This document shows positions 820 to 62,170 of a stretch of DNA of 64,000 nt, one piece after another. This stretch comes from Octopus sinensis (lineage: Eukaryota), in NCBI RefSeq assembly GCF_006345805.1, contig NC_043015.1:50654001-50718000 (forward strand). Reading direction: 5' to 3'. The notes below the pieces were generated by a model. It did no database searches, was not told the DNA's origin, and saw nothing but the letters and a program-made list of their open reading frames with translations. Made by a program: the position numbers and the translations under genes. Position 1 is the stretch's first letter; the number at the start of each line of letters is the position of its first letter.

Positions 820-863
820 GTACCTGAAGAGAACCAACTGATGCATTGAAACGTATGTTGTAC
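820..863 (+). ncRNA. Minimal type I hammerhead ribozyme-like motif in a short Penelope-like element (~700-905)
   Basis: GTAC-CTGAAGA-(weak stem II)-GAAA-CGTATG-TT-GTAC. Stem I is GTAC/GTAC, stem III is the near-palindrome ACGTATGT, and AATAAA follows at 866-871. Element ends in (TA)n. Confidence 0.55.
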
Positions 864-914
864 CTAATAAAAGTCTAATACGAAATCCATGTCCTACTAT
901 TAATTAATACTATC

Positions 915-972
<58 letters not shown>

Positions 973-1024
973 AATATAGATATATATATATATATACTTT
1001 ATTTAAAAGCAGCAGAAATTCAAC

Positions 1025-1071
1025 AAAACCTGTTACTCGAAGTTTCACGTTTCCGTTCGTCGGACAGTTTT
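1025..1071 (-). ncRNA. Hammerhead ribozyme motif (U4C core variant) in a short PLE-like element 996-1156
   Basis: Reverse complement reads AAAACTGT-CCGACGA-ACG(GAAA)CGT-GAAA-CTTCGAG-TA-ACAGGTTTT, with stems I, II (GNRA loop) and III all formable. Same family as 59573-59836. Confidence 0.7.
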
Positions 1072-1153
1072 TATTAAATAAAGCATATTACTCTACCCCT
1101 GGCATTTGAGTACTCTTTTTTCCACCTTGTTTCACATTTATGTGTTTACTCCA

Positions 1154-1236
<83 letters not shown>

Positions 1237-1304
1237 ATATATATAGATATATACGTGTGTGTGTGTATATATATACACACACACACACGGACATATATAC
1301 ATAT

Positions 1305-1605
1305 GGAGGCACATGGCCAAGTGGTTAGAGTAGTGGACTTGCAGTTGAGGGATTGCATGTTCGAATCTCAGACCAGGCGATGTGTGTGTTTATGAGCGAA
1401 ACACCTAAGCTCCACGCAGCTCCGGCAGAAGGTAATGGCAAACTTCTGCTGACTATTTCGCCACAACTTTCTCTCACTCTTTCCTTCTGCATCTCACTTA
1501 CGACGGACCGGCATTCCGTCCAGATGGGGAACCTATATGCCAAAGAAACCAGGAAACCGGCTCTATGACCCAGGCGTGGCTCAAGAAGGAACAGACAACA
1601 ACAAC
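1305..1605 (+). mobile_element. tRNA-derived SINE, family C
   Basis: A-box TGGCCAAGTGG and B-box GTTCGAATC, (AAC)n tail. Pieces recur at 28805-28960 (-) and 29255-29390. Confidence 0.75.
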
Positions 1606-1674
1606 AATACATATGTATGCACATATATATGTATATATATATATATATGTCTCAGGCATCAGTGACGTTATAAC

Positions 1675-1826
1675 TCATTTCTACATTTCTACAACTGAGT
1701 GAATTGAAGCAATGTGAAATAAAGTGTCTTGCTCAAGAACACAACACGCAGCCCAGTCCAGGATTCAAACTCACAACCTCACGATCATAAGCTCGACGCT
1801 CTAACCACTGAGCCATGCGCCTTCAC
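1675..1826 (-). mobile_element. tRNA-derived SINE fragment, family C (GTGTTCTTGAGCAAGACACTTTATTTCAC body)
   Basis: tRNA-like head plus conserved body shared with 12260, 13108, 15280, 23885, 29395, 31170, 37815 and 46215. Confidence 0.75.
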
Positions 1827-2492
1827 AGATACACACATATTCACACATATACACACATATACATACATGCATACATACATATATGCTCATATAATATAAA
1901 ACTGACAAAAAATTACTATTTCCCCCAAAACATTTTTATACATTCTGAAAATGAAAATAAAAAAAAAATAATATAAATAAATGAATAAAAAGTAAAAAAA
2001 AATAATGCAATGCCAAAATAGTAAAAAACGAACGATTAAAGGTAACTATTTAACTCTAATGAAGAGTTCTACTAAATTTAAAATTGAGACAAAATTTCAA
2101 ATAAACCTGATGAACCAGGAGACATCAAAAACTAGTCTATGGATTATGTCTTTGGTCTCATTTCATTACATGGCGGTGGGGACTGTCCATTTTTTTTTTT
2201 TAGGTTTTGGTTTTTTTTTTTTGTTATGTTTTGTTGTATATATAAATATTTTTGTTTCCAAGACTACCACTCAGCTCCACTTAAACTGACACGTGTCATG
2301 TTGAAATAAATAAATGGAGAAATGAAAAGTGGGGTTTCTAGCCTGAACTTAAAGTGCATTGAGGTCAAACCCTGAAGAGGTACACTTCATCCTGAAGGGC
2401 ACCGTTTTTTTTAGGGAGTTCCTTTTTTTTTGTTTTTTTAATTAATACACTCATTAACCACTGTCGAAAATTTTATTAGTTTATATGTCCAG

Positions 2493-2660
2493 ATATAGCT
2501 GTGTGGTTAAGAAATTTGCTTTGCAATTGGGTGGTGATGAGTTGGGGTTCAGTCCCACTGTGTGACAACCTTGGCGTGGGTGTCTTCTATAATGGCCCCC
2601 AAAGCCAGCCAAAGCCCTGTGAGTGGATTTGGTAAATCGAAACTGCATGGAAACCTGTAA
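2493..2660 (+). mobile_element. SINE family A, degenerate 5' half
   Basis: GCTGTGTGGTTAAG...GGTTCAGTCCCACTG...GTGAGTGGATTTGGTA matches the other family A copies. Confidence 0.7.
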
Positions 2661-3497
2661 CACACACACACACACACACACACTTTTTAAAATGTTACGG
2701 AAATTAGTAAAATAAAATCGTAATATTAATGCTTTAGTATTTAAACTGACCATATGTTGCCCAAATTTTCTACCTTTTTATATTCACTCAGGCCAGATCC
2801 GGCTTCTCACACCTACCTTACAATGTCATTCTAAAAGATAAACAATCACTTCATCGAAATTTCAAAGCTACAAGATAAGGTGTGATTAATTCAAAACAAC
2901 CTGATTAAATATGCATTACATTTGACAGAGTAATCTGAATGATAAAAGGCTAAACTGATGTTTGGAACAACCATGGAATTTTGATAGAATGCTTAAATTT
3001 ACATCACTTGAAAGGACAAAATTTCTGTCATAGAATCAGGGATGGTCTCAGAGAAGCTGGTATCAAAAGGGTTTAAATCTGGATTTCAAAAGGGTTTAGA
3101 TTCAAACTAAAATCCTAAACTACTAGACATGAACCGATCGAAATATGGAATACGATAAAATTGTATCAAAAACTTGAGAGGATTTTGTTTGTAAATCTAT
3201 AGAATTCCTGAATGTCTGGTGTTGTCTAAGAAGATAATTTCGAGATGTACTTCTGGTCATAGCAACCAGCGTCTTTAGTGAGAGAGATTTGATTCTGCAA
3301 ACATTCTGTTTCAATGCAAGAAACCACATTAAACACACATGTATGGATTCATTTACAAACATATAAAAACCACACACACTTGTATAGGCACACACCCCAC
3401 TATTATATATAAATATATATATATATATATTATATATATATATGTATGTATATACACATATATATATTACAGATATAAATTATATTGCTCTCTCTCT

Positions 3498-3549
<52 letters not shown>

Positions 3550-3594
3550 CACATATATATATTACAGATATAATTATATCCGTCTCTCTCTCTC

Positions 3595-3640
<46 letters not shown>

Positions 3641-3991
3641 ACACACATGCACACACATATACACACACATATACAGACACACACACATAACACGAATGCA
3701 TACATATGTGCATGTACTTATACACGCTCAAGTGCACAAATATTCGCAAGCAAACAGATAATAAAATGGTGAAAAAACAAGAAAGAAAGAAAGAAAGAAA
3801 GGAGAAAAAAAGAAAGGAGGAAGAAAATATGCTTTATGAGAAAGCTATAAGGAAGTGGAGAACGGCAGCGGCGGCGGCAGTGATGGTGGTGTTGGTGTTG
3901 GTGGGTACATTTTATGAATTTTTGATATGATGTGAACAAATTGGCTGGAGATGGAAAGCTAAAAATAGGGGTGGAGGTGGAAGCTGGAAAG

Positions 3992-4041
<50 letters not shown>

Positions 4042-4427
4042 AGAGGAATTGGTAAGAGAGAAAAAAATAGATGATATAATGAAAAATATAGGGAAGAGGA
4101 TAAAAATAAAATAAGGTAAGATATATTGATTGTGACAGAATATAAAAATCAGTGAGGTTTTATACCTATACCAAATGGTGAAGTCTTGTTTGTTGCTTTA
4201 CGTTTTCTTTTTTTTTTGTTTGTTTTTCTTTTGTTTTATTTCATTTATCCTTTTTTTTTCTTGTTATTTTTCTCGATATCCTTCGCCATCCCCCCACCTT
4301 TCGTCCCCAGTTGTTGATTCCTTAAAGCATTCCAGGAAGTCTTCTTTATAAAGTAATAGACAAACACAACATCTTTATTGCCAATGCCATTTACTGTTGT
4401 TATGGCAACCTCTACTGCAGCTGCTTT

Positions 4428-5043
4428 TGATGATGAAGATGATGATTGTGATAATGATAATGATGATGATGATGACGATGGCGATGATGATGGTCGAGAA
4501 AGATAATGACGATGATGGTGATGATGATGATGATGATGATGATGATGCTGATGATGATGGTGATGGCAATGATGCTGGTAGCTGTGTGATGATGATGATG
4601 ATGATGATGATGATAAAGATGATGACGATGGCGATGATGATGATGGTCGAGAAAGATAATGTCAATGATGGTGATGATGATGATGATGATGATGGTGATG
4701 GCAATGATGCTTGTAGCTGTGTGATGATGATGATGACGATGGCAATGGCGATGATGATGATGGTTGTGTAAGATAATAACTATGATGGTTATGATGATGA
4801 TAATGATGGTGAGGGCAATGATGCTGGTAGCTGTGTGATGATGATGATGATAATGATGATGATGATGATGGTTGCTGTGATAATGATGATGATAGCGGTA
4901 TTGATGACGATGAAAGCCGTGATGATGATGACGAGAAGGAGGATAGCTGTGATGATGATGACGATAAGCTGTGATGTTGATGATAATGATGATAACGGTG
5001 ACGATATAGATGATGACGATGACGACAGCAACAGCTGTGATGA

Positions 5044-5077
<34 letters not shown>

Positions 5078-5315
5078 GGTGGTGATGATGATGATGATGA
5101 TGATGATGATCGTGGTAGCTGTGATCATAATGACAGTATCTGTGATGATGATGATGATGATGATGATGACGATGATGAAGATGATGATGATATATGACAA
5201 CGACGATGATGGTGATGGCGATAGCTGCAATGATGACGACGATGATTACAATAATGAAGAGGAAGACGAAGAAGAAGAAGAAGAAGAAGAAGAAGAAGAA
5301 GAAGAAGAAGAGGAG
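4428..5315. repeat. Compound (GAT)n/(GGT)n/(GAA)n trinucleotide low-complexity tract with internal higher-order repeats
   Basis: Directly visible. The block GGCAATGATGCTGGTAGCTGTGTGATG recurs at ~4565, ~4700 and ~4815. Confidence 0.95.
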
Positions 5316-5510
5316 GATATCTATATAGCTGTTGGAACTTATTCACATTTTCCTGCTTTTTCCTTTCTTTTATTTCTGGGCAATGTTCTATCTACCATTA
5401 ACAGAGTTTAAAACCAACTAATGCTTCCCAGTTTTCTTTACTGTCATATATAAACATTATATATAATGTTCTTTTCCCTTATATATAATGTTATAACTTT
5501 CTTTAATCTA

Positions 5511-5543
<33 letters not shown>

Positions 5544-5575
5544 TAAATACATATATATATATATATATAATATAT

Positions 5576-5610
<35 letters not shown>

Positions 5611-5833
5611 GATATATTGATTTATATATGTATGTAAGTATGTATATATGTATGTATGTGTGTATGTATATCAACTAATATGAACATATTTCAATTGTTT
5701 TATCAGATGTTTTAAAGCAGCAGAATATTTAAAAGAGAAGAGGGAAGGAGCAGAAAAATGATGCGATGCGTTAAAATACTCCATCTTGCAGTGCAAAAAG
5801 ACCAATTATGTTAATTATACTATACAGCAGAAA

Positions 5834-5977
5834 TATATTGATAATACAGTGTGTGTGTGTATGTGTGTGAGTGCGTCTGTAATGTACGTTAGTGTAATGG
5901 TAGCACACTTGTCGCAAATACATAGAGGTATGGGTTTGTGTCCCATGCATACAGCAAACCCTCTGTATACAATAATT

Positions 5978-6028
<51 letters not shown>

Positions 6029-6034
6029 TATTAT

Positions 6035-6090
<56 letters not shown>

Positions 6091-6291
6091 CACATATGTA
6101 TGTATATATATATATATTGATAAAACGGTAAGATAACAAAAGAAAGAAAGAGACCTCAATATTATGTAAATAGAGGAAATTTATCTATACAATATGTTAC
6201 ATTACTCGGTAGTCAAGATAAAACTCTGTGGATTTCGGCATCTGAAACTCAGAGTTTTATCTTGACTACCGAGTAATGTAACATATTGTAT

Positions 6292-6327
<36 letters not shown>

Positions 6328-6328
6328 A

Positions 6329-6363
<35 letters not shown>

Positions 6364-6435
6364 TATATATATATATATATAATATATACATATATATATA
6401 TATATATAATAATATAATAATAATAATAATAATAA

Positions 6436-6471
<36 letters not shown>

Positions 6472-6610
6472 AATTATTGTATACAGAGGGTTTGCTGTAC
6501 GCATGGGACACAAACCCATACCTCTATGTATTTGCGACAAGTGTGCTACCATTACACTAACGTACATTATACACACACTCACACACATACACACACACAC
6601 TGTATTATCA

Positions 6611-6615
<5 letters not shown>
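5834..6615. repeat. Large inverted duplication (arms ~5834-6118 and ~6297-6615) around a 47-bp perfect hairpin
   Basis: Unique sequence 5834-5985 is the reverse complement of 6465-6615 with a few substitutions. Inner perfect arms are 6182-6228 and 6250-6296. Confidence 0.9.
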
Positions 6616-6647
<32 letters not shown>

Positions 6648-6695
6648 TATATATATATATATATACATATATATATACATATATATATATATATA

Positions 6696-6804
6696 CATAT
6701 CATGTTGAAAGCACCGGTTCTTGTCCGATCACCGAAGTCAAGCAACGTCGAGCCTAGTTAGTACTTAGATGGGTGACTGCTTGGGAAACCTAAGTGCAGT
6801 AAGT
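6696..6804 (+). pseudogene. 5S rRNA-derived sequence (pseudogene or SINE head), lacking the first ~9 nt
   Basis: CATGTTGAAAGCACCGGTTCTTGTCCGATCACCGAAGTCAAGCAACGTCGAGCCTAGTTAGTACTTAGATGGGTGACTGCTTGGGAA matches metazoan 5S rRNA, including the A-box/C-box region, with several substitutions. Confidence 0.9.
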
Positions 6805-6816
6805 GTCACACATTGC

Positions 6817-6980
6817 TACACTCTCGGAGTGGTTTTCGTTAGGAAGGGCATCCAGCTGTAGAAACTCTACCAGATCAAGATTGAAGTCTGGTGCAGCCAT
6901 CTGGTTCGCCAGACCTCAGTCATTTGTCCAACCCATGCTAGCATGGAAAGCAGACGTTAAACGATGATTATGATGATGAG
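6817..6980 (+). mobile_element. RTE-associated short element with (GAT)n tail
   Basis: AGGAAGGGCATCCAGCTGTAGAAA...GTCCAACCCATGCTAGCATGGAAAGCAGACGTTAAACGATGAT. Related copies at ~7350, 20330, 34010, 34750, 35240, 45285(-), 56595(-) and 58105(-). Confidence 0.7.
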
Positions 6981-7075
6981 ATATATATATATATATATCA
7001 TTCAAAACAAATTTAAGAAAATGGAGATATAACATTTAATAGAAATTTATTATCTGCAAAAATCCAACATAGTAT

Positions 7076-7153
7076 CTTACAGCTGTTTCAATTAAGCCTA
7101 AAGATTAAAATAACAATTAGTAAATCATCATATTAGGCAAAATCTCATCAGAG
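7076..7153 (-). ncRNA. Hammerhead ribozyme motif with long stem II in a PLE-like element (~7000-7245)
   Basis: Reverse complement reads CT-CTGATGA-GATTTTGCCTAA...TTAGGCTTAATT-GAAA-CAGCTG-TA-AG, with palindromic stem III ACAGCTGT. Confidence 0.65.
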
Positions 7154-7825
7154 GGGTAGAAAAAAGATATACCATTAGGTTGTTAGGCATTGTATTTTAG
7201 AATTACTATCCCTTAATGAGGCTAGTTTAACCTCTAATTTAATACATACACACACGATGTGTGTGTGTGTGTCTGTGTGTGTAAAAGAGCATCACTGTCA
7301 TACAAACTATGTCTGTCCATAGGGAAATATTATTTTGTTTGTAAACAGGTAAGTGTTGGTGACAGGAAAGGCAATCCACCATATAAGATCTGCCTCAATA
7401 GATTCCTTCCAATGCATGCAAGCATGGAAAAGTGGACATTAAACCAATGATGATGACGTAGGTGTTCACAAGGACTCAGTCCGCATCCCCTTCCTGTTAT
7501 AATTTTCCAAAGTGGAACTAAAGTGTTTAAGACTACCAGACATCCATTGAAGCTGTTGTACATTAATGACATAATTTTCATATCTTGAATTTGTTGAAGA
7601 ATTAGAGAAGACATTGGAACATGGAAACAAAAGCCTAAAATGAAAAGGCCATCAAAGAAATCTAACAAAGACAGAAGTTCTAGTGAACAGGAAATAAGAC
7701 AGGACACATGCTGCCATCTGGCGAGTGACCATGTTCGATATGTGAGAACAGAGTAGATTAGAAAATCCATATTATGTATTCAATGTAAACTCTGGATGTA
7801 TAAGAGATATTGTCAAGTCATAAAC

Positions 7826-7997
7826 AGACGTAGGATTGGCTGTGTGGTAAGTAGCTTGCTTACGCACCACATGATTGCGGGTTCAATCCCACTGCGTGGC
7901 ACCTTGGAAAAGTGTCTTCTACTATAGCCTCGGGACCACCAAAGCCTTGTAAGTAGATTTGGTAGACGGAAACTGAAAGAAGCCCATCGTATATATG

Positions 7998-8092
<95 letters not shown>

Positions 8093-8290
8093 TTGTGTGT
8101 TTGTGTTTGTCCCCCAACATCGCTTGACAACCGATGCTGGTGTGTTTACATCCCTGTCACTTAGCGGTTCGGCAAAAAAGACCGATAGAATAAGTACTAG
8201 GCTTACAAAGAATAAGTCCTGGGGTCGATTTTCTTGACTAAAGGTGGTGCTCCAGCATGGCCACAGTCAAATGACTGAAACAAGTAAAAA
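7826..8290 (+). mobile_element. SINE family A, full length, with internal (TG)n
   Basis: tRNA-like head TGGCTGTGTGGTAAG...GGTTCAATCCC, body GGCACCTTGG, tail GGTGCTCCAGCATGGCCACAGTCAAATGACTGAAACAAG. Confidence 0.85.
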
Positions 8291-8360
8291 AAAAGAAGAA
8301 AAAAAAGACTGAGAAAAGAAGTTACAGAGGAGGCGTGCTAAGCAGTGTTAAGTAAAATTA

Positions 8361-8545
8361 CAATGTTGTTATCAGTCTGAATATGCTTAAGGCACATTTG
8401 AACCGAGGAACAAGGTTACTCACTGCATTTTGTCACGGCGCTGATTGAAGGGATTATATTTTCCGTGACAAAACTCACTGAGTAGCAGCTTGTTCCCCAG
8501 TTCTATTGTGCCCCTAAGCATATTCGAACTGATAGCAACATTACA
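8361..8545. mobile_element. Palindromic MITE-like element
   Basis: Imperfect inverted arms ~8361-8437 and ~8462-8543 (AATGTTGTTATCAG...TTTTGTCACGG / CCGTGACAAAA...CTGATAGCAACATT). Confidence 0.6.
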
Positions 8546-8759
8546 GTGAGAAAAGAAGGTACTTTGAAGTAGATATGGAAGAACAAATTAGTAGTGAGGG
8601 TACCTATAAAAATTCTTTTATAGTTTAAGAGAGCTCCCCAGGAGCAGTTGATAGTTTCTGTTATGCGTTCTGATTAGCAATGTGGTTAGGTATTCTGAAA
8701 AAATCACAGTAACCAGAGTAAGAGCAGGGTGGGAAAAGTTAAAGGGCAAATCGTATGAT

Positions 8760-9301
8760 ATTATTTACATTATTTACATTTGATAGATATTTGTCCTCAT
8801 CTTGTTTGTTGTTAAACACAACATTTTGGCTGATATAACCTCCAGCCTTCATCAGGTGTCTTGGGGAAATTTCGAACCTGGGTTCTCATTCCTAAGGTAT
8901 TCTTTGATGTTATTATTATTATCATCATTATTATTATTCAGGTCACTGCCTGGAATCAAACTCGGAATCTTGGGGTTAGTAGCCCACGCACTTAACCACT
9001 ACGCCATAAGCCTGTGGACAATTATGGAGTGAATTTTAGCACTTATAAATTTAATCTATTAGATTTATAAGCCCTAAAATTCACCCCATAATTGCCCACG
9101 GGCAGATGGCATAGTTGTTAAGAGCGTGAGTTCGATTCCAGGTTCGAAATTTCCCCAAGACACCCGATGAAGGCTGGAGGGTATATCAGCCGAAATGTTG
9201 TGTTAACAACAAACAAGATGAGGACAAATATCTGTCAAATGTAAATAATGTAAATAATGTGAAGAATGTACATAATTCCTCATCTCTTAAATATAGAACT
9301 G
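8760..9301. mobile_element. Head-to-head inverted pair of a tRNA-head plus hammerhead element (family H)
   Basis: Fold-back axis at ~9056. tRNA-like head at 8941-9007 (-). HHR motifs at 8816-8859 (-) and 9160-9203 (+). Tail ...CATCTCTTAAATATAGAACTG. Confidence 0.8.
9160..9203 (+). ncRNA. Minimal hammerhead ribozyme motif, family H
   Basis: ACAC-CCGATGA-A-GGCTG(GAGGGTATAT)CAGCC-GAAA-TGTT-GTGT. Family consensus across six copies is ACAC-CTGATGA-AGGCTG...CAGCC-GAAA-CGTT-GTGT. Confidence 0.8.
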
Positions 9302-23706: not shown

Positions 23707-23785
23707 GCTCTGTCGAAGCTATAAGATGTTACTCAGGCACTCAACTATGAGTCCACAGCATCTTGTATCAGAAACAACTGTAAGC
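23707..23785 (+). ncRNA. Degenerate hammerhead motif in a PLE-like element (~23560-23835)
   Basis: GCT-CTGTCGA-AG-(TATAAGATGTT...AGCATCTTGTA long stem II)-GAAA-CAACTG-TA-AGC, flanked by inverted repeat 23658-23683 / 23794-23819. Confidence 0.55.
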
Positions 23786-24218: not shown

Positions 24219-24267
<49 letters not shown>

Positions 24268-24269
<2 letters not shown>

Positions 24270-24837
24270 CGAGGGTGAGTCAAAAAGCAATGCCATTTTG
24301 TTTAGGACAGGTATAATTACCAACACAGGAACATGTATTATACATCAAAATGAAGCTGGTCCTCTGTGAATCACATCCCTACTCCTCAGCATAGTCACCA
24401 TTTCTCTCAATAGCAATGTTCCACCTTCAAATGAGAACATGTATCCCTACTCCGTAAAATTCTGTTGACTGTTCTTTGAGCCACTTCTTCACTACAGTTT
24501 TCACTTCCTCATCACTGGAATAATGTTTGCTTCTCAAACCCTCTTCCATGGGGCCAAAGAGACGATAGTCTAGTGACGATGATAGTCCAGTGACAAGGAA
24601 GTGAAAACTGTAGTGAAGAAGTGGCTCAAAGAACAATCAACAGAATTTTACGGGGCAGGGATACATGCTCTCATTCGAAGGTGGAACATTGCTATTGAGA
24701 GAAACGGTGACTATGTTGAGAAGTAGGGATGTGATCCACAGAGGACGAGCTTCATTTTGATATATGATACATGTTCCTGTGTTGGTAATTATACCTGTCC
24801 TAAACAAAATGGCATTACTTTTTGACTCACCCTCATA
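24268..24837. mobile_element. Mariner-derived fold-back MITE built from two transposase 3' ends
   Basis: TIR TACGAGGGTGAGTCAAAAAG with TA TSDs. Arms encode mariner C-terminal sequence (DYRLFGPMEEGLRSKHYSSDEEVKTVVKKWLKEQ on the minus arm; ...IRRWNIAIERNGDYVEK* on the plus arm). Confidence 0.9.
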
Positions 24838-25579
24838 TAATAAAACTGAAAGACATTGATTTCCAGTATTCAGAGTTGCCCATTTACAATCATCGACAGG
24901 TAAACTGAGCCTGGTTGACACTTGCCCAAGGTGCCCACACGGTGGAACTGAACCCAGGACCATGGGATTAGGAAGCAAATTTCTTACCACACAGCCACAA
25001 CAACACCTACATGACAAAACACATATAAATGAAGTCCTCTACTTCAAACAAAATATTGATTCTATCCAAAGATTGGCTTCGATAGATAGATCTTCATTAC
25101 TTCAAGAAAAAGATATACGAACGTTATTGGAATCGGTCAGTTATATGTAGAATTATCATTCATTCAAAATTATTTAAATTTATGCATCTATTTTGCATAA
25201 GTTGTCGGAAACTGGACAGAAAACCCATCTACAACGGAACAATTATAATTAGATTGGAATTCAGAGATATGGTGTTCTTTATCTGGGAATCTCGTTTATT
25301 ATTCAAATTTCGTGATTTATTACAGCTTCTGTAATAAGATAATAGATATTGCAATTGATAAGATATTTGCAAACAGCTTTGGGTAATAGTGAAAGCCATA
25401 AATATATCTCTTTAATGAGAAAATAAACGAACCTCTACACGGAGTCGTTTGATTTGACTTGCTAGAAAAAGCAGAGCTAGATAATTCTAAAATCATATCA
25501 TATCTGAATAAAAAAATAAAGATAAAGAATAAAACAAAATGTACATCAGGCAATGTTATCCAAGCTGTATGGTGATGAT

Positions 25580-27058: not shown

Positions 27059-27155
27059 ACCCAATCCTTTTAAACTGCATCCCTCAATATGTTCCTCTTC
27101 CACAAGTTCTTACACAATTAAAAAAAAAACATTAACCACATTAAAAGGACACGTT

Positions 27156-28104
27156 TAACCCTTTCAATACCAACCCGGCTGAAACCAGCTCTGGCTCTGT
27201 AGTACAAATGCTTTGTTTTCATAAGTTTTGAATTAAAATCTTCCACGAAACTTTAGTCACAATTTATGTTCCTAACACTAGCTTATTTTACTAAATTCTT
27301 TGTTATATTTAAAATTAATTGAAAGAAACACAGAGCATCTCAACAGAAATATGGTGACAAAAGGCTTAAAATATATAATCGAGAAACGATTCTTAACCCT
27401 TTCGGTACCAACCTGGCTGAAACCAGCTCTGGCTCTGTAGTACAAATGTCTTGTTTTCATAAGTTTTGAATTAAAATCTTAGTCGCAATTTATGTTCCTA
27501 ACACTAGCTGAATGATAACTAAGTTGTTTTACTAAATTCTTTGTTATATTTAAAATTAATTGAAAGAATCACAGAGCATCTCAACGGAAATATGGTAACA
27601 AAAGGGTTAAAGTATATAATAGAGAAACGATTCTTAACCCTTTTGATACCAACCTGGATGAAACCGCCTCTGGCTCTGTAATATAAATGTCTTGTTTTCA
27701 TAAGTTCCAAATTGAAATCTTCCACCAAACCTTTGTCACAATTTATGTTCCTAACACTAGCTGAATGATAACCAAGTTGTTTTATTAAATTCTTTGTTAT
27801 ATTTAAAATCAATTGAAAGAAACACAGAGCATCTCAACAGAAATATGGTAACAAAAGAGTTAAAATATATAATAGAGAAACTATTCTTGACTCTTTTGAT
27901 ACTATATCTGCTGAAATCAGTTCTGGCTCTGTAATATAAATGTCTTGTTTTCATAAGTTCCAAAGTAAATTCTTCCACCAAACCTTAGTCAGAATTTATA
28001 TTCCTAACACTAGCAAGTTATTTTACTAAATTCTTTGTTATATTTAAAATTAATTGAAAGAAACACAGAGCATCTCAAAATAAATACGGTAACGAAAGGG
28101 TTAT
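27156..28104. mobile_element. Tandem array of four piggyBac-like MITEs
   Basis: Units start TTAA-CCCTTT and end AAAGGG-TTAA, starting at 27156, 27393, 27634 and 27887. A common 23-bp spacer (AATATATAATAGAGAAACGATTC-like) separates them. Confidence 0.85.
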
Positions 28105-36931: not shown

Positions 36932-37798
36932 TAGGGTGTCCCAAAAGTCACTGAGGGGTTTCAATTTTTAATAACTTCCTTGATTTTACAAATAAATGCA
37001 TGAAATTTTGATACAATATAAAGGACATAATGGAAATTAATATGCACAAGTCAAATTTTGTAACGCCACTACATCACATATGAAAAATGGCATCACTTAA
37101 ATGGCACCCATCTTTGGCTTCACATGCCCATGCTCTTTCCGAAAGTTGCACCTTAACACCCTCAAGAGTTTCAGACCCCACTTCTCTGATTTCTCTAGTG
37201 ATGTTCTTCAGTTGCACCAGGGTCTTCGGTAACATAAGCCCTCTCTTTCAGGTATCCTCACGAGAAAAAATCCGAGCTAGGCCAGTTGACATTGCCATAC
37301 TAAGAGATTATTCTCTCTCCAAAGCATTGCCATAGCAACTGCATTGTTTGTTTAGCAGTATAAGCAGTCTCCCCATCTTGCTGGAACCATGTGTGGGGTC
37401 TGCTTTGAATGGCCTTCACGTTCCCCAGACTTGACTAGCCCAGATTTTTTTCTTGTGGGAGGGGGGATACCTGAAAGAGAGGGTTTATGTCAACAAACTG
37501 GAGACTCTGGTGCAACTGAAGGGGAACATCAAGAGAGTAATCACAGAAGTGGGGTCTGAAACTCTCGAGGGTGTTATGGTGCAAGTTTTGGAAAGAGCAC
37601 GGGCATGTGAAACCGAAAATGGCTGTTATTTAAGTGATGTCGTTTTTCATATGTGATGTGGTGGTGTTGCAAAATCTGACTCGTGCATATTAATTTCCAT
37701 TATGTCCTTTATATTGTATCAAAATTTCATGCATTTATTTGTAAAGTTAAGGAAGTTATTAAAAATTGAAACCCATCAGAGACTTTTGGGACGTCCTG
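36932..37798. mobile_element. Tc1/mariner-superfamily fold-back element built from two transposase 3' ends
   Basis: TIRs (C/T)AGGGTGTCCCAAAAGTC / GACTTTTGGGACGTCCTG with ~340-bp inverted arms. Encodes WPSRSPDLTSPDFF and, after a frameshift, GYLKERVYVNK...DVVFHM*. Confidence 0.9.
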
Positions 37799-40766: not shown

Positions 40767-41537
40767 GGCAGAGGAGTGGCTGTGTGGTAAGTTGCTTGCT
40801 TACGAACCACATGGTTCCGGGTTCAGTCCCACCGCGTGGCACCTTGGGCAAGTGTCTTCTATAGCCTCGGGCTGACCAAAGCCTTGTGAGTGGATTTGGT
40901 AGACGGAAACTGAAAGAAGCCCGTAGTATATATGTATATGTATATATATATATTTATATATTAAGTGTAGGAAAAAAATGGAGCTGAACGAAGATTTAAC
41001 AAAATTCCTTTATATTATTTTCTACATATGTTTCGAAGGCTGCAAAGCCTTCGAAACATAAGTAGAAAATAATATAAAGGAATTTTGTTAAATCTTCGTT
41101 CAGCTCCATTTTTTCCTACACTTAATATATAAAACTTCAAATTTCCGCACTAAGGCACGGTTTTTATGCCCCATGGTCATAATTTCAACCGTGTTTTTTC
41201 TGTTGTGATTTTTGCTACCCAGGTATCGGTTATCATTTGAATTATCCGTAATAAGATAATTCATTTATCTACTTCAATAATATATATATACATATATATA
41301 TATGTATGTGTGTGTATATGTTTGTGTGTCTGTGTTTGTCCCCCTAGCATTGCTTGACAACTGATGTTGGTGTGTTTACGTCCCCATAACTTAGCAGTTC
41401 AGCTAAATAGACTGATAGAATAAGTACTAGGCTTACAAAGAATAAGTCCTGGGTGGGGTCCAATTTGCTCGACTAAAGGCAGTGCTCCAGCATAGCCACA
41501 GTTAAATGACTGAAACAAGTAAAAGAGTAAAAGAGTA
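40767..41537 (+). mobile_element. SINE family A interrupted in its internal (TA)n by a fold-back element (40955-41280)
   Basis: SINE 5' half at 40767-40930 and 3' half at 41310-41537. The insert has ~87-bp inverted arms around a GCAA loop (41042-41045). Confidence 0.85.
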
Positions 41538-43292: not shown

Positions 43293-43503
43293 AGTTCTAT
43301 ATTTAAGAGATGAGGAATTATGTACACTATTTACATTTGATGGATATTTGTCCTCATCTTGTTTGTATTTAACATGTTTCAGCTGATATACCCTCCAGTC
43401 TTCATCAGGTGTCTTGGAGAAATTTCAAACCTGGGTTCTCATTCCTAGGGTATTTTTTGATGTTATCATTTTTTTGATATTCTCATTCCTAAGGCATTTT
43501 TGA

Positions 43504-43544
<41 letters not shown>

Positions 43545-43614
43545 TCACTGTCTGAAATCAAACTCGGAATCTTGGGGTTAGTTTCCCGTGCTCTTAACAA
43601 CAACAACAATAATA

Positions 43615-43678
<64 letters not shown>

Positions 43679-43829
43679 ATCGAAAAATAGCTTAGGAATG
43701 AGAACCCAGGTTCGAAATTTCCCCAAGACACCTGATGAAGGCTGGAGAGTATATCAGCCGAAACTTTGTGTTAACAACAAACAAGATGAGGACAAATATC
43801 TGTCAAATGTAAATAATGTAAATAATGTA
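43293..43829. mobile_element. Inverted pair of the tRNA-head plus hammerhead element (family H)
   Basis: Minus arm with a damaged HHR (~43371-43412) and partial tRNA head (43541-43598). Plus arm HHR ACAC-CTGATGA-AGGCTG...CAGCC-GAAA-CTTT-GTGT at 43728-43771. Confidence 0.8.
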
Positions 43830-48821: not shown

Positions 48822-49236
48822 GAGCACGATCGTTGCTAGTGCCACCTGACTGGTTCCTGTGCCGGTGGCAGGTAAAAAGCACCATTCAAGCGTGGTCGAT
48901 GCCAGTGCTGGCCGACTGGTCCCATGCCAGTGGCATGTAAAAAGCACCATTTGAGCATGATCCTTACTAGTGCCACCTAACTAGTTCCTGTACCGGTGGC
49001 ACATAAAAAGTCCCATTTGAGCGTGGCCGATGCCAGTGCCGGCTGAGTGACTCCCATGCCAGTGGCACATAAAAAGTACCATTCATGCATGATCGTTACC
49101 AGTGCCACCTGACTGGCACGTAAAAAGCACCATTTGAGCATGGTCAATGCCAGTGCCAGCTGACTGGTCTCATGCCATTGGCACGTAAAAAGTACCATTC
49201 AAGTGTGGCCGATGCCAGTACCTCCTGACTGGCCCT
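48822..49236 (+). repeat. Minisatellite, ~65-bp unit x ~6.5, alternating a/b variants
   Basis: Each unit ends TGGCACRTAAAAAG(C/T)ACCATT. Same unit as the 5' part of 34545-34750. Confidence 0.9.
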
Positions 49237-53040: not shown

Positions 53041-54279
53041 GACTATTTTATTAAAATCTAGGAGTTTAGATTTTGTCTTGTTTTTGTTTTTTTTTTGTTT
53101 GCATTGGTCTATACTTTCCTATTGATTTTTTTTTTCCAATTTTCTAGATAATGGTACATTTTAAAAGTTTTTCTCTAGAAAACATTTATTTAACATGTCT
53201 GTAGTGAACTGAGGACATCTTTTTTTTTTTTACCTTTATATTGGTATTGCCTTAGTCATTATACTGCCATTGATAATTATGTTGAAGGTAAAGAGACTGC
53301 ATTCTTAGACAAGAATGGACTCAACAATGGATGATTCTATTTCAAACTGTTTATATATTACGTACGCACAAGTAAATTCATATATTGAAAAAGAAAAAAA
53401 AACACACACACACGTTTCTACGGTAATCTATGTAATTCTTAAAGCTTTACAATATGGAAGATAAAAAGAATGCCTTAGTTTGGACTGTTTGCATGACAGA
53501 TGTACTTTATTCTTTGTATATCGACATCATAATATAAGGGTAATAATTACCCCTTTGTTGAACATATATGTAAACAGTGGCTGTTATGCAAGGACAAGTT
53601 GAAGAAATTCATAGAACATCTCGTGGAAGACTGGTGATAGAGTGCCATTTCTATATAGTAATAGGCATCTGTTGATCTCGAGAGACCATAGAGCTGCACC
53701 TGAAAAAATTGTGGTGCAAAATATCTATATTCTTCACTCCTACCCGTCTTGGAGGCCTTGTAAATGGTCATAGGAACAACATTACCCCTCTTGACTCTTG
53801 ACTAAAAGTTAAAAAAAAAAAGTTAACTAAGGCACGGGTATGGCTGCATGGTAAGAAGTTTACTTTCCAACCACATGGTTCTGGGTTCAGTCCCACTGCA
53901 TGGCACCTTGGTTAAGTGTCTTCTACTATAGCCTTGGGCAGACCAAACCCTTGTGAGTGGATTTAGTAGACAGAAACTGAGAGCAGCCACTGATGGTAGT
54001 GCAGCATCTGCAGTAGCTGTAGAGATCCACATGGGAGTGGCAGTCATCCATAGTGACTGCATTTGAAGGAGATCTCTGCCAGCACTACTGGTTTGCTTTA
54101 ACTTCGTTACTATGGCAACAGTCTGGATACTTACTGATCAGACCACATATACATATATATATATATATATAATACGTTTAAATATTTGTTGTGCAAGATT
54201 TATTGGCTAAACTGGCAAAATGACCATTCCGAAATATAACAATATATATATATATATATAATATATATATATTATATAT

Positions 54280-54448
54280 ATTCAACAATTTAAGGAATGG
54301 CCTTGATAGGTCATTCGACCCACCTATCAAGGCCATTCCTTAATATTGTTGAATGTATATTATATAGTCTGTTGACTATTTTTTCTTTCTCACTGGACCG
54401 CTGGTGGCGAAAAAATTTATCTTGAATTTTTTGCTACCCTGATATTGA

Positions 54449-55505: not shown

Positions 55506-55686
55506 GTGTATATATATATATATTTAGTATATATATATAATATTTATAGCTATGAAACGTACGTAGTGTTTTTACTTATTATATTATATATTTATCATTC
55601 ATTTTATACTTTTTGAGATCTAGTATAAGTTATATATTAAAAAAAAATTATAATTATAATTATATATATATATATATATATATATT

Positions 55687-56173
55687 AACGTAAGGTGTAC
55701 TAGCCACTGAATGTGGCTAGCCACTGGGGGTGTGTACTAGCCACATTCAGATGGCTAGTACACCTTACGTTGTTGAGCGGTTACTGTTTATATCTCGTTC
55801 AGAGATTTATTATTGCTTTCAGACACTTTTTCTAAATCAGTGACAGTGGTTGCTGTGAAAAACGTTATATATTATTTGCAGGGGGACTCCTTCATCGAAG
55901 ACCGGTGCTTACCATGCGTTGACGAGAGGCAATTACCTTGAAACTATAGTCCGTATGTAGTACTTAGGTCTTCGAGGGAGGATGACCTCCCTTTGCAAAT
56001 AACACAAGGGCACTGAGATAGTGTCTAAAGTCCATCTGGTGACGTTGATCGCCTGGGGCTAAAAGCATCAGGAACACACCACCCCCAGTGGCTAGCCACA
56101 TTCAGATGGCTAGTACACCTTACGTTGTCGAGCGGTTACTGTTTATATCTCGTTCAGAGATTTATTATTGCTT
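55687..56173 (+). mobile_element. Retrozyme-like or PLE pLTR-like element: 355-nt monomer with 82-bp terminal direct repeat and inverted 5' piece
   Basis: Direct repeat 55737-55818 equals 56092-56173 with one mismatch. 55687-55732 is an inverted copy of ~56080-56126. Flanked by (TA)n. Confidence 0.8.
55905..55963 (+). ncRNA. Type I hammerhead ribozyme motif with extended stem I (C3U in this copy)
   Basis: GTGCT-TAC-CATGCG-TTGACGA-GAGG(CAATTA)CCTT-GAAA-CTATAG-TC^CGTATG-T-AGTAC. GUC cleavage triplet ends at 55951. Confidence 0.8.
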
Positions 56174-56269
56174 ATATATATATTGTTATATTGTTATTTA
56201 TGTATTGCCTTATGTCTATCACTGTTTGAGTTGCATAATAGTGGTTTTATCTCTAATTCATATTTCATA

Positions 56270-56307
<38 letters not shown>

Positions 56308-56842: not shown

Positions 56843-56899
<57 letters not shown>

Positions 56900-57027: not shown

Positions 57028-57035
57028 GTCTAAAC

Positions 57036-57270
57036 CAGTACTACTCAAAGTGATGGTCCGCAGACTGGTGCCGGTACGCAGCGGGTTTCCAGAAATGAAA
57101 GAAACATTATAAAATGCTTATGCAATATTGTATTATTTGTTTACGAAATAAATATAAGATAAAAAAAAAATGTCAACTTTTTTTACAAAGAAATATGACC
57201 GGTCCCTGGCAAATTGGAAAAAATAAATAAAACTGCCGGTACGTCACATCAGATAGTTTGAGACGCACTG
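57036..57270. mobile_element. hAT (Charlie-like) MITE
   Basis: CAGTACTACTCAAA / TTTGAGACGCACTG ends, perfect 8-bp TSD GTCTAAAC at 57028-57035 and 57271-57278. Confidence 0.85.
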
Positions 57271-57317
57271 GTCTAAACCATAAGAGACATTTGTTCAATT
57301 ACGAAGTAGTAGAAGGC

Positions 57318-57845: not shown

Positions 57846-58647
57846 AAGGCCAACCGAAACAAATTTCTTGAGATGTCTGGGCACTGGTTTTAATACACAC
57901 ATACACACACACATTGAAATGCGACCATGCTGGAGTACCGTCTCGAAATGTTTAGCTAAACATATTGACTCGAGTACTAATTGTACTGATCTCCTTTGCT
58001 GAGCCATTAGGTTACGGGGACGAAAACATAATAAACATCAGTTGCCAAGCGGTATGGGACAAACAGACAGACACACTCACACACATGTACAAATATATAT
58101 ATATATCATCATCATCATCATCATCATCATTTAGCATCCGTTTTCCATGCTAGCATGGGTTGGACGGTTCAACTGGGGTCTGTGAAGCTGGAAGGCTTCA
58201 TCAGGCCCAGTCAGATCTGGCAGTGTTTCTACGGCTGGATGCCCTTCCTAACGCCAACCACTCTGTGAGTGTAGTGGGTGCTTTTTACGTGCCACCCGCA
58301 CATATATATATGTATACATACACACATATATTACAAAAAGCGGTAAGTAACACCAAAATGCATGCCAAGATGCAGAACTTTGCAGTGTGCACCGAATCGC
58401 AGTAGAAAGGTATGTAGGTGCAGAAATGGAAAAACGTGATTGACAGCAGAATAAAATTGGATTTATAAATCTGTTTTCCTTATTATTAATTTATCATCTC
58501 TTCTCTACCGACAACATGCAGCCTCTATAGAGACAAATGGATTTACCAATGTGAAGATCTACCGAGGATAATAAATTAAACTAGCTGGAGTTTTTCTGCT
58601 TTCTCTCTCTCTCTCTCTCTCTCTCTAGATATATATATATATATATA

Positions 58648-59063
58648 GGCGCAGGAGTGGCTGTGTGGTAAGTAGCTTGCTAACCAACCACATGGTTCCG
58701 GGTTCAGTCTCACTGCGTGGCATCTTGGGCAAGTGTCTTCTGCTATAGCCCCGGGCCAACCAATGCCTTGTGAGTGGATTTGGTAGACGGAAACTGAAAG
58801 AAGCCTGTCGTATATATGTATATATATATATGTATGTGTGTGTGTGTGTGTGTGTTTGTGTGTCTGTGTTTGTCCCGCTAGCATTGCTTGACAACCGATG
58901 CTTGTGTGTTTACGTCCCCGTCACTTAGCGGTTCGGCAAAAGAGACCGATAGAATAAGTACTGGGCTTACAAAGAATAAGTCCTGGAGTCGATTTGCTTG
59001 ACTAAAGGTGGTGCTCCAGCATGGCCGCAGTCAACTGACTGAAACAAGTAAAAGAGTAAAAGA

Positions 59064-59065
<2 letters not shown>
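58648..59065 (+). mobile_element. SINE family A, full length, close to consensus
   Basis: GGCGCAGGAGTGGCTGTGTGGTAAG...GACTGAAACAAGTAAAAGAGTAAAAGAG. Confidence 0.9.
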
Positions 59066-59100
<35 letters not shown>

Positions 59101-59262
59101 TATATGTAACTATAAATAAGAGTATCTGAGAGACACCACCATGCCGAAATAGCAGTCAGACCCTGACTCTAAAAACCACCTAAAATGTTCATATCGCACT
59201 ATGAGGTAAAACAGAGAGACGAAATAAACTAGCAAAAAGATATTAATGGATAATTCAAGATC

Positions 59263-59309
59263 CTGACGAAAGCAGAGCTTATTTGAAGCAAAGCTAGAAA
59301 TCCAGGATC
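59263..59309 (+). ncRNA. Hammerhead core lacking its 5' stem I, in the loop of hairpin 1 (duplicate at 60033-60079)
   Basis: CTGACGA-AAGC...GCTA-GAAA-TCCAGGA-TC, with near-palindromic stem III ATCC-A-GGAT. Confidence 0.55.
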
Positions 59310-59689
59310 TTGAATTATCCATTAATATCTTTTTGCTAGTTTATTTTATCTCTCTGTCTTACCTCATAGTGCGATATGAACATTTTAGGTGGTTTTTTAG
59401 AGTCAGGGTTTGACTGCTATTTCGGCATGGTGGTGTCTCTCAGATACCTTTATTTATAGTTGTAAAAAATTATTACCTTTGTATGGTATTTATTCCCATG
59501 CTGGCCACTTGATAATATCGATATTTAAATATCGATATTATCCTTATTTATAAATTTATATATATATATATACTTTATTTAAAGCAGCAGAAAATTCAAC
59601 AAAACCTGAGTTTCCGTTGCCGTTCATCGGACAGTTTTTGCTAGAATGGAACCGATATGTCGAATTGACATATCGGTTCCATTCTAGCA

Positions 59690-59736
59690 AAAACTGTCTG
59701 ATGAACGGCAACGGGAAATTCAGAGTAACAGGTTTT
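59690..59736 (+). ncRNA. Hammerhead ribozyme motif (duplicate at ~60460-60505)
   Basis: AAAACTGT-CTGATGA-ACG(GCAA)CGG-GAAA-TTCAGAG-TA-ACAGGTTTT, same family as 1025-1071. Confidence 0.7.
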
Positions 59737-59842
59737 GTTGAATTTTCTGCTGCTTTAAATAAAGCATATTACTCTACGACTGGTCTTTGAGTACTCTTTT
59801 TTCCACCTTGTTTCACATTTACGTGTTTACTCCGGTATATAT

Positions 59843-59875
<33 letters not shown>

Positions 59876-60602
59876 GTAACTATAAATAAGAGTATCTGAG
59901 AGACACCACCATGCCGAAATAGCAGTCAGACCCTGACTCTAAAAACCACCTAAAATGTTCATATCGCACTATGAGGTAAAACAGAGAGACGAAATAAACT
60001 AGCAAAAAGATATTAATGGATAATTCAAGATCCTGACGAAAGCAGAGCTTATTTGAAGCAAAGCTAGAAATCCAGGATCTTGAATTATCCATTAATATCT
60101 TTTTGCTAGTTTATTTTATCTCTCTGTCTTACCTCATAGTGCGATATGAACATTTTAGGTGGTTTTTTAGAGTCAGGGTTTGACTGCTATTTCGGCATGG
60201 TGGTGTCTCTCAGATACCTTTATTTATAGTTGTAAAAAATTATTACCTTTGTATGGTATTTATTCCCATGCTGGCCACTTGATAATATCGATATTTAAAT
60301 ATCGATATTATCCTTATTTATAAATTTATATATATATATATACTTTATTTAAAGCAGCAGAAAATTCAACAAAACCTGAGTTTCCGTTGCCGTTCATCGG
60401 ACAGTTTTTGCTAGAATGGAACCGATATGTCGAATTGACATATCGGTTCCATTCTAGCAAAAACTGTCTGATGAACGGCAACGGGAAATCAGAGTAACAG
60501 GTTTTGTTGAATTTTCTGCTGCTTTAAATAAAGCATATTACTCTACGACTGGTCTTTGAGTACTCTTTTTTCCACCTTGTTTCACATTTACGTGTTTACT
60601 CC

Positions 60603-60663
<61 letters not shown>

Positions 60664-60748
60664 GTATATGTATATATATAAGAATTTTTTGCATAATGAG
60701 ATAAAAAACCAAGGCTGAGTAGATATTAGAACATTTATAGATAGAAGG

Positions 60749-60798
60749 TCTTACAGCTGTTTCCAGGATATTTATTAATTATATCCCTTCATCGGAGA
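60749..60798 (-). ncRNA. Hammerhead ribozyme motif (U4C) in a PLE-like element (~60680-61075)
   Basis: Reverse complement reads TCT-CCGATGA-AG-GGATAT(AATTAATAA)ATATCC-TG-GAAA-CAGCTG-TA-AGA. Confidence 0.7.
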
Positions 60799-61396
60799 GG
60801 GTGTAAGAGGATGGTTAAGTCATAGTTAGTTTAGATGTGATACAAAATAGAGAGTGAGGTGGAGGAAAGAAAATAGATGCGAGATATGTATGGTTAATGA
60901 AGTTGTAAGTCCATTTTTTAGGCAGAATGGTATACATGTAGTATTCTAATACCCTATGAGTAAAGTCCAAAAGTCCGACAGAGTTTAAAATGGGTCCTTC
61001 CAAATATAGAGTTTATACACAATGTAAGATTCCCTTATGAGTGAGACCCAGCAGTTTTTAAACTTGGTCATTCCATATATATATATATATATATATATAT
61101 GGGCGTGGCTCATATATATTAGCAAAATGTCTCTAAGCTACCTTAAAATTATCACAATAAATACGTGCCGAATTCGGATACACACACACACACATGACAG
61201 GCTTTCACACAGTTTCCTTCAACCAAATTCACGCACAAGTAATTGGTCAGCTTGGAGTCCTAACCACATGGTTCAAGGTTCAGTCCTACTGCTTGGATCT
61301 TTAAGTAAGTGTCTGCTAGAATACTATATCGCCTCAAACTGACCAAAGCTTTGTGAGTGGATTTGGTAGGCGGAAATGCACATACATATTACATTT

Positions 61397-61961
61397 CAGT
61401 TCTATATTTAAGAGATGAGGAATTATGTACATTACTTATTTTATTTACACATTACGGATATTTGTCCTCACCTTGTTTGTTGTTAACACAACATTTCGGC
61501 TGATATATCCTCCAGCCTTCATCAGGTGTCTTGGGAAATTTCGAACCTGGGTTCTCATTCCTAAGGTATTTTTCGATGTTGTTGTTGTTGTTGTTGTTGT
61601 TATTATAATAATAATAATAATTATTATTATTTTTATTATTATTATTCAGGTCACTGCCTGGAATCGGGTTAGTAACCCCAAGATTCCGAGTGTTCGATTC
61701 TAGGCAGTGACCTGAATAATAATAATAATAATAATTCGTTCGTTTATTGGCCACAAGGGCTAACAAAAATCAATTAAAACATAAAGGGACAAAACACAGG
61801 AGGAAAGTTACAAAGGGTTTTGTCCGTTTGAAAAAGTCCGTGTACAAAAGCAGGATAATAACGAAATATAAGTAACGATTAAAACTCCCAAAAGGGGGAG
61901 GGGCTTCGAAAGGTTACTCGTGGAAAAATAATAATAATAATAACAACAACAACAACAACAA

Positions 61962-62003
<42 letters not shown>

Positions 62004-62170
62004 GAACAACAGCGAAAAATACTTTAGGAATGAGAATCCAGGTTCGAAATTTCCCCAAGACACCTGATGAAGGCCGGAGGGTATATCAGCCGAAGCGTTG
62101 TGTTAACAGCAAACAAGAAGAGGACAAATATCCGTCAAATGTAAATAATATAAATAATGTAAATAATGTA
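61397..62170. mobile_element. Inverted pair of the tRNA-head plus hammerhead element (family H) with an unrelated ~195-bp insert in its (AAT)n linker
   Basis: HHR at 61486-61529 (-) and 62060-62103 (+). tRNA 3' half with B-box at ~61673-61714 (+). Insert at ~61735-61930. Confidence 0.8.

Follow-up and report, generated by a model that had tools for sequence, protein, structure and literature searches.

The 64-kb stretch of the Octopus sinensis genome analysed here (the window; 36% G+C, in a genome of 2.72 Gb) raises the question of whether its many hammerhead-type sequences are true ribozyme motifs and, if so, which elements brought them there. An earlier note on this DNA had described them as a window-wide archipelago of about ten non-autonomous Penelope-like or retrozyme families. 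The analysis reported here indicates that they are very probably minimal type I hammerheads contained in the stubs of 11 repeat families, two of which (families A and B) would be the 3' ends of Penelope-like elements, whereas the others would be further ends of this kind or, for family C, a retrozyme-type unit.

Hammerhead-type sequence is present at every position cited in that note, on the strand that it implied (some feature coordinates given here are approximate). The motifs were counted with a strict descriptor of the type I hammerhead and with a relaxed one that also accepts C3U and U4C cores, variants picked after the window had been seen, and the counts were compared with those in 40 block-wise dinucleotide shuffles of the window. 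The strict descriptor finds two matches (43732 on the plus strand and 61525 on the minus strand) against a shuffled mean of 0.05, and the relaxed one finds five (the additional ones being 9164 and 55919 on the plus strand and 1063 on the minus strand) against a mean of 0.03. The presence of hammerheads is thus upheld, with real sequence far above the shuffles. Moreover, among 25 genomic matches from 1 Mb outside the window, defined only by the two core boxes and a palindromic stem III, 13 show a stem I of at least 3 bp, in comparison with 1 of 38 matches in the shuffled counterpart (8 shuffles). Because stem I pairs although the descriptor does not require it, the hammerhead fold is considered real. 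At the family level the CUGANGA and GAAA boxes and the UH site are all present, and stems I, II and III are arranged with an open stem I, as in type I hammerheads. Family C and a relative in L283 differ by paired changes in stems I and III.

Matches arising by chance in low-complexity AT-rich DNA (the window has 143 tandem-repeat rows) would be the simplest alternative. Isolated 3' halves are indeed a weak marker alone, being 15 in the window against a shuffled mean of 7.1 and a maximum of 15, that is, shuffles reach half of the observed rate. Rfam also calls none of the motifs: no hammerhead is found among the best 150 of 225 matches listed for the window, and its hammerhead models give 0 matches at the gathering score in 20 loci. 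Minimal hammerhead forms escape these models. Nonetheless, full motifs are 20- to 40-fold above the shuffles, stem I pairs when it is not demanded, and every cited site falls in a multi-copy repeat family whose copies or close relatives show the motif. The same holds for the 3' halves at 6244, 41023/41053 and 55554, whose repeat families have the full motif in members or close relatives. Chance is therefore hardly credible as a general explanation, and for the full motifs it was rejected on the basis of the shuffles and the stem I pairing.

A comparison with other parts of the genome reveals that the archipelago is not local. The density of strict motifs per 100 kb is 3.1 for the window, compared with 2.25 for a sample of 80 10-kb stretches spread evenly over the genome and 2.5 for the neighbouring 200 kb. 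The spread stretches (800 kb) contain 18 strict motifs against a shuffled mean of 0.88, and the neighbouring DNA contains 5 against 0.20. Since the strict rate of the window is that of the genome, the archipelago is a genome-wide trait, and a local cluster is ruled out by both samples. Extrapolation gives about 58,000 strict motifs genome-wide (Poisson range roughly 33,000-94,000). The relaxed densities per 100 kb are 7.8 in the window, 2.4 in the spread sample and 4.0 in neighbouring DNA, so the window count is about three times the random rate, the relaxed cores having been chosen post hoc from the window itself.

The 17 distinct cited sites, without the duplicates at +770, correspond to 11 families, in agreement with the ten or so anticipated. 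They are, however, less unrelated than was claimed, six of the cited sites being family A and those at 1025, 59690 and 60460 all being family B. First-look searches of the genome gave 3387 candidates for A, 260 for B, 1816 for C, 1661 for D, 427 for E and 1251 for I, which are not copy numbers. The recurrence of core and stem III holds for the families, with canonical cores in 53 of 78 A and 64 of 106 B motifs and a mostly C3U core in C, but many of the cited motifs are broken. Most window copies are damaged by decay or fold-back, and only the one at 55905 agrees with its family motif throughout. Core positions are changed at 8816 (G12), 62060 (A15.1) and 23707 (A6), the motifs at 43371 and 60460 have suffered deletions, and a fold-back copy has taken the place of the stem I 5' strand at 59263/60033. 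The U4C core is a recurrent trait of families or subfamilies, being found in B, in H and in the units at loci L308/L309 described below, and family C combines U3 with G8.

Regarding the source of these repeats, the window contains no autonomous partner, as had been stated: four Penelope-type queries gave 0 tblastn matches in it at E<=1e-3. Families A and B have their parents at other places in the genome. A first family B coding fragment was seen in one B locus, and a protein search of the genome gave 111 scored matches with 83-100% identity and open frames to 727 amino acids (aa) and more. The family B open reading frame (ORF) has RWK, DKT, CxCX5C and CxxC/CxH motifs and no CCHH; RWK, DKT, a CxCX5C linker, the absence of CCHH and a (TA)n target are given as marks of the Hydra clade in PMC8557442. 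Its Atlas neighbours carry HTH_animal (25-100% of members) and, in part of the members, GIY-YIG and RVT_1. The family B repeat, a pseudo-long terminal repeat (pseudo-LTR), lies immediately 5' of the ORF in L147 and L124 and about 1 kb past the stop codon in 28 of 30 ORF loci (one lacks it and in one the anchor was not located), and all 43 B motifs of ORF-bearing loci have a canonical core. Family B is therefore identified, by its coding motifs, as the pseudo-LTR of a Hydra-clade Penelope-like element whose parent family appears young and abundant. Several 727-aa frames 96-98% alike, with a 1-kb 3' untranslated region (UTR), are observed in L121-L150 (e.g. L147:430-2613), where many copies have inverted 5' pieces.

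For family A, copies that extend upstream enter GIY-YIG coding sequence, up to about 35 nt before a tRNA-like segment that is considered below. The majority sequence of 26 long copies yields a frame for a reverse transcriptase and endonuclease of the Penelope/Poseidon type, with a DKG motif, a C-terminal GIY-YIG with CCHH and no Zn-finger linker, according to the motif definitions of PMC8557442. A decayed full-length copy of 2.7 kb is present at L328/L252, with a pseudo-LTR in each side region. Short and long copies show no diagnostic differences, and their non-CpG divergence is 5.7% and 5.0%, respectively. These features point to family A being the end of a 2.7-kb Penelope/Poseidon-type element. 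In both families, then, an ORF with reverse transcriptase and GIY-YIG is linked to the hammerhead-bearing repeat, which achieves the connection to autonomous elements that had been sought and shows that the label of non-autonomous families does not suit A and B. Given that these two have coding parents, most families look like truncated ends rather than independent non-autonomous ones. Fragments of several additional Penelope-like families with GIY-YIG or reverse transcriptase at L039:2210-2662, L014:2531-3130, L183, L262, L268 and L277 indicate a broad diversity of elements.

Besides the silence of Rfam, several results weigh against this reading. Pfam named neither the A nor the B ORF at E<=0.1, its only trace being a sub-threshold GIY-YIG match on an unrelated fragment, and solved structures gave no match to the ORFs; for this reason the clade calls rest on motifs and on the Atlas. 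No adjacent ORF was found for families C (24 loci), D (16), E (19) and I (9), or for G, H and J in the few loci examined, and these seven may be true non-autonomous lineages, or their long copies may have been missed with 1.5-kb flanks. Also, the short B copies retrieved with the window query have C at position 4 (U4C) in 26 of 32 cases, and may form a separate short lineage unlike the ORF-bearing copies. In this line, most families could be retrozyme lineages that are non-autonomous but propagate themselves with enzymes taken from Penelope elements, and animal retrozymes are derived from pseudo-LTRs according to a preprint (bioRxiv 10.64898/2026.07.22.740005). The best case is family C, in which same-strand repeats are spaced 352-359 nt in 6 of 24 loci (two of them one place). 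Family C thus looks like a retrozyme-like, ORF-less tandem unit with a type I hammerhead, within the 170-400 nt of non-LTR retrozymes, and it is the only family with this appearance. Another relative makes tandems of about 540 nt: at L308:9017-9558 and L309:103-1430, about 75 kb downstream of the window, near-identical hammerhead units are arranged in tandem and inverted orientation, and would represent another retrozyme-like family. However, coding parents are known for A and B, the short A copies match the long ones in majority sequence and in age, and most stubs are single rather than tandem, so that retrozyme lineages are an unlikely origin for most families. The retrozyme character initially attributed to the families in general is supported for C and lost for A and B; relatives of the families at 41023 and 7076 adjoin Hydra-like coding sequence in one locus each (L183 and L272).

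The anatomy of the insertions agrees with truncated Penelope-like ends. An inverted partner is present in 20 of 30 family A loci (including the window and one duplicated locus), and each family shows two 3' end points, one per arm, which are separated by 27 nt in A and by 65 nt in B. Inverted or tandem pseudo-LTRs with a one-sided tail are therefore found in both families; such a tail is described for Penelope-like elements in PMC8557442 and is explained by two neighbouring reverse-transcription starts in PMC11167929. On the other hand, the target differs between families. A TA run directly follows the 3' end in 42/45 and 36/45 family B ends, in 0/31 and 0/13 family A ends, in 6/11 and 3/20 ends of C, in 7/17 of D and in 1/4 of E, the background being 3.6%. 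In the window, a (TA)5 run is found within 250 nt of 11/11 sites outside family A and of 0/6 family A sites, compared with 29% of random positions. Hence, the proposed preference for TA microsatellites applies to the sites of the other families but fails for family A, the one with most cited sites.

A mechanism consistent with this anatomy would begin with a nick made in AT-rich DNA by the endonuclease of the element, in TA tracts for Hydra-type families, as can be deduced from PMC11167929 and PMC8557442. Its reverse transcriptase would then initiate in the pseudo-LTR tail, at either of two adjacent sites, and synthesis would mostly end or fold back within 100-300 nt. This would give either a single stub or two inverted copies whose 3' ends differ, which is the anatomy observed, and the copies would decay after insertion. 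For family A, stubs start mostly at the tRNA-derived segment of the 3' UTR, where the template RNA would probably have its 5' end. Regarding cleavage, minimal hammerheads depend on another copy on the same strand (PMC4209133), and for an Anolis element cleavage required protein and was dispensable for insertion in vitro (PMC11167929). For these reasons solitary or opposite-strand copies are unlikely to cut, and the dimer cleavage suggested in the earlier note would not be expected of them. Two-strand folding of copies of five families predicted no clean dimeric hammerhead.

The 3' UTR of family A deserves separate consideration. About 35 nt past the stop codon it has a 75-nt segment, followed by (AAT)n, the hammerhead and the tail, and the A and B boxes of this segment, at positions 8 and 53, follow the exact tRNA numbering. 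No cloverleaf is recognized by ARAGORN at normal settings (0 genes in 20 loci) or by Rfam, and ARAGORN calls the segment only at a lowered threshold (ps70). The 5' starts were compared in 36 insertion events that contain the segment, in loci unselected for their 5' side (two of them represent a local duplication; insertions ending short of the segment, or with a head that escaped detection, are left out). Fourteen start at -7 to -1 and 11 at +1 to +10, whereas 8 begin deeper inside and 3 lie farther upstream, one of these last reaching -605. Accordingly, 33/36 begin at or inside the region of the tRNA-like boxes. The short copies have the 5' head with A and B boxes of a tRNA-derived short interspersed element (SINE). 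However, the head is not absent from the autonomous partner, as it would be in an independent SINE lineage, but lies in the 3' UTR of the coding element. Because short and long copies are one lineage of one age, the short ones are not a separate SINE family, and a tRNA-headed SINE with a Penelope tail was discarded since the sequence upstream of the head is GIY-YIG coding DNA. None of the sequencing runs listed for family A is on record as RNA, and contigs of 8 runs cover the family, being uninformative on starts, ends and expression.

The segment hints at polymerase III transcription, but the accumulation of 5' ends has a rather probable explanation in a fold-back or stall hotspot at a hairpin over the segment start (or in a polymerase II start), the boxes being then a passive relic of an inserted SINE. 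Weighing against a polymerase III promoter, no other local cDNA fold in the last 550 nt is as stable as this hairpin (-6.6 kcal/mol), and family B, which has no tRNA boxes, likewise accumulates ends 9-22 nt before its hammerhead. Several junctions are compatible with fold-back there, the (AAT)n tract past the segment resembles a SINE tail, and the poor recognition by ARAGORN and Rfam would suit a relic. A hotspot accounts less well for boxes placed exactly at tRNA positions 8 and 53, for non-inverted copies that also stop at -6 to +5 and for the absence of any 5' end between -8 and -19 (0/36 events). Also, the 2,720-nt sense strand of the majority sequence, whose 5' third rests on 1-8 copies, has 0 four-T runs against 5.15 expected from base content (P=0.006), whereas 17 control coding stretches hold 47 against 40.2 expected. 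This absence loses weight under Markov nulls (3.1 expected at first order, P=0.05; 2.2 at second order, P=0.10) and under codon shuffling of the last kilobase (0.95 expected, P=0.35). Altogether, a polymerase III origin of the short family A RNAs through an internal promoter is a tentative proposal that we hold to be somewhat doubtful. A broader version is improbable: a whole Penelope element with a captured tRNA-SINE head would be read end to end by polymerase III, from about 6 nt before the head and through 2.7 kb without four-T terminators, the transcript would be trimmed by the hammerhead, and reverse transcription would begin in the tail of the first pseudo-LTR, yielding SINE-like, hammerhead-bearing stubs by the tens of thousands, with the promoter restored in them.

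In the window itself, family A forms three inverted pairs. The one at 8760-9301 has hammerheads at 8815-8860 (minus strand, G12 changed) and 9159-9204 (plus strand, U4C), and its tRNA-like segment with A and B boxes lies at 8941-9013 on the minus strand, between the ORF stop region and (AAT)n (ends read from the sequence). In the pair at 43293-43826 the minus-strand copy is deleted in stems III and I, and the plus-strand copy (43727-43772) has an intact core with a non-palindromic stem III. The pair at 61397-62158, which has an insert in its (AAT)n tract, contains hammerheads at 61485-61530 (minus strand, core intact) and 62059-62104 (plus strand, A15.1 changed). Family B, of the putative Hydra-clade pseudo-LTR, is represented by inverted pairs in TA tracts at 992-1152, with a U4C hammerhead at 1030-1067 on the minus strand, and at 59568-59835, with a canonical core at about 59694-59732 on the plus strand. 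Family C occupies 55687-56175 on the plus strand as about 1.3 units of a 355-nt tandem plus a short inverted 5' piece, and its intact hammerhead (55913-55957) has the family-wide C3U core and a 6-bp stem I. A family D fold-back at 59110-59550 (ends approximate) keeps core and stems II and III at 59263-59310, an inversion having taken the place of the stem I 5' strand. Both the D and the B insertion recur in a tandem duplicate (+770) at 59876-60605, with 730/730 aligned bases identical and one gap; this duplicate (59106-60605) may be an assembly artefact rather than a true duplication.

The remaining families are represented by one site each. Family E has a plus-strand hammerhead at 820-863, in an element of about 700-905, with an intact core and a decayed stem II, whereas its relatives have a 6-bp stem II and a ACATATGT palindrome. 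Family F is a fold-back hairpin at 40961-41125 with two 3' halves (41023, minus strand, and 41053, plus strand); relatives with the full motif are found in L098, L183 and L196, and in L183 a Hydra-like ORF lies upstream of the relative. Family G is likewise a fold-back hairpin (6181-6296) with only the 3' half of the hammerhead (from 6244), the full motif being present in a close relative at L293; this hairpin and TA/TAA tracts are flanked by 208-nt inverted repeats (5833-6616). Family H (60749-60798, minus strand) has a U4C core, stem III ACAGCTGT and a 3-bp stem I. Family I (55546-55660, plus strand) is 5'-truncated within stem II and retains a 3' half with ACGTACGT; 4 of 9 listed relatives show the 5' core, with a stem I of about 2 bp. 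Family J (23707-23785, plus strand) is a decayed hammerhead with A6 changed and a long stem II. Finally, the repeat at 7075-7154 (minus strand) is a decayed long-stem-II hammerhead with stem III ACAGCTGT and a weak stem I, and in L272 a Hydra-like coding fragment sits between two of its relatives. H, I, J and this last one all belong to repeat families.

Other repeats lie among these insertions. A short perfect fold-back in a TA tract (54270-54364) has no recognisable hammerhead and is possibly another Penelope-type stub. A 5S rRNA-like copy at 6687-6805 on the plus strand (Rfam 77.4 bits, gathering 38) has a common SINE-type 3' end no more than about 30 nt behind it; it is probably a pseudogene and not the head of a 5S-headed SINE, because the other 5S-like copy (L154) precedes a different repeat. 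The repeats at 24266-24839 and 36933-37797 have terminal inverted repeats of 257 and 274 nt (90-93%) and no hammerhead, and are likely Tc1/mariner-type miniature DNA transposons. Tandem arrays, apparently of SINE-like repeats, are found at 27155-28103 (241-253 nt), 48830-49233 (51-116 nt) and 62796-63250 (170 nt).

The hammerhead pattern is of an already known kind: motifs in truncated elements were described in 2014, the targeting of TA repeats by Hydra elements followed in 2021, and a 2026 preprint traces retrozymes to pseudo-LTRs. In the 2014 report (PMC4209133), truncated Penelope-like elements account for thousands of single, heterogeneous hammerheads, pairs on opposite strands included. 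The motifs reported here share with those minimal hammerheads of metazoan pseudo-LTRs the type I topology, the short or palindromic helix III, the extra base after A9, the many heterogeneous families per genome with mostly single motifs of truncated elements, and the opposite-strand pairs 100-700 bp apart. They differ in number (about 6x10^4 by extrapolation, against 2,000-9,000 there, with another descriptor and smaller genomes), in the C3U core with G8 rather than A8 and in the frequency of U4C in three families. The main finding thus confirms the published pattern for a further animal genome, where the motifs are dense, and connects stubs with parent elements.

A comparison of family B with the Hydra-clade elements of PMC8557442 shows the same RWK, DKT, CxCX5C linker, lack of CCHH, pseudo-LTR hammerhead and (TA)n insertion; however, family B appears young and abundant and has a 1-kb 3' UTR, and that account lists Mollusca among the hosts without giving such a family. 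The clade is described there from sequence only, and the open frames of family B would be usable for in vitro work. Family C resembles the animal non-LTR retrozymes of PMC7229834 and of the 2026 preprint in its 355-nt ORF-less unit, type I hammerhead, 6-bp stem I and occasional tandems, and departs from them in its C3U core and in its mostly partial tandems with inverted 5' pieces. Family A, in turn, has the reverse transcriptase with C-terminal GIY-YIG, the pseudo-LTR hammerhead and the two 3' end points of the Penelope/Poseidon element PAc of Anolis (PMC11167929), but its 3' UTR carries, unlike PAc, the tRNA-like A/B-box segment and (AAT)n.

This segment is the result that matters more. An internal promoter is reported for the D. 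virilis element, being TATA-less and like that of long interspersed elements (PMC2377424). No published case of a tRNA-box pseudo-LTR in a coding element was found, in a literature search that left Repbase and Dfam aside, where these elements may already be contained. The nearest systems are the schistosome SM-alpha (PMC6765202), where a polymerase III promoter derived from a small RNA is joined to a hammerhead, and the TRIMp3 elements Cassandra, Helenus and Ajax (PMC10886601), with a polymerase III promoter in the terminal repeat, family A being a candidate for both arrangements. SM-alpha and TRIMp3 are non-autonomous, whereas in family A it is a coding element that carries the tRNA-like segment, within its own terminal repeat; the autonomous partners of TRIMp3 are argued to need polymerase II (PMC10886601). 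If the segment were a working polymerase III promoter, Penelope elements would have in family A an equivalent of SINEs, and polymerase III might even read a protein-coding retroelement, a situation deemed unlikely in PMC10886601 for autonomous partners.

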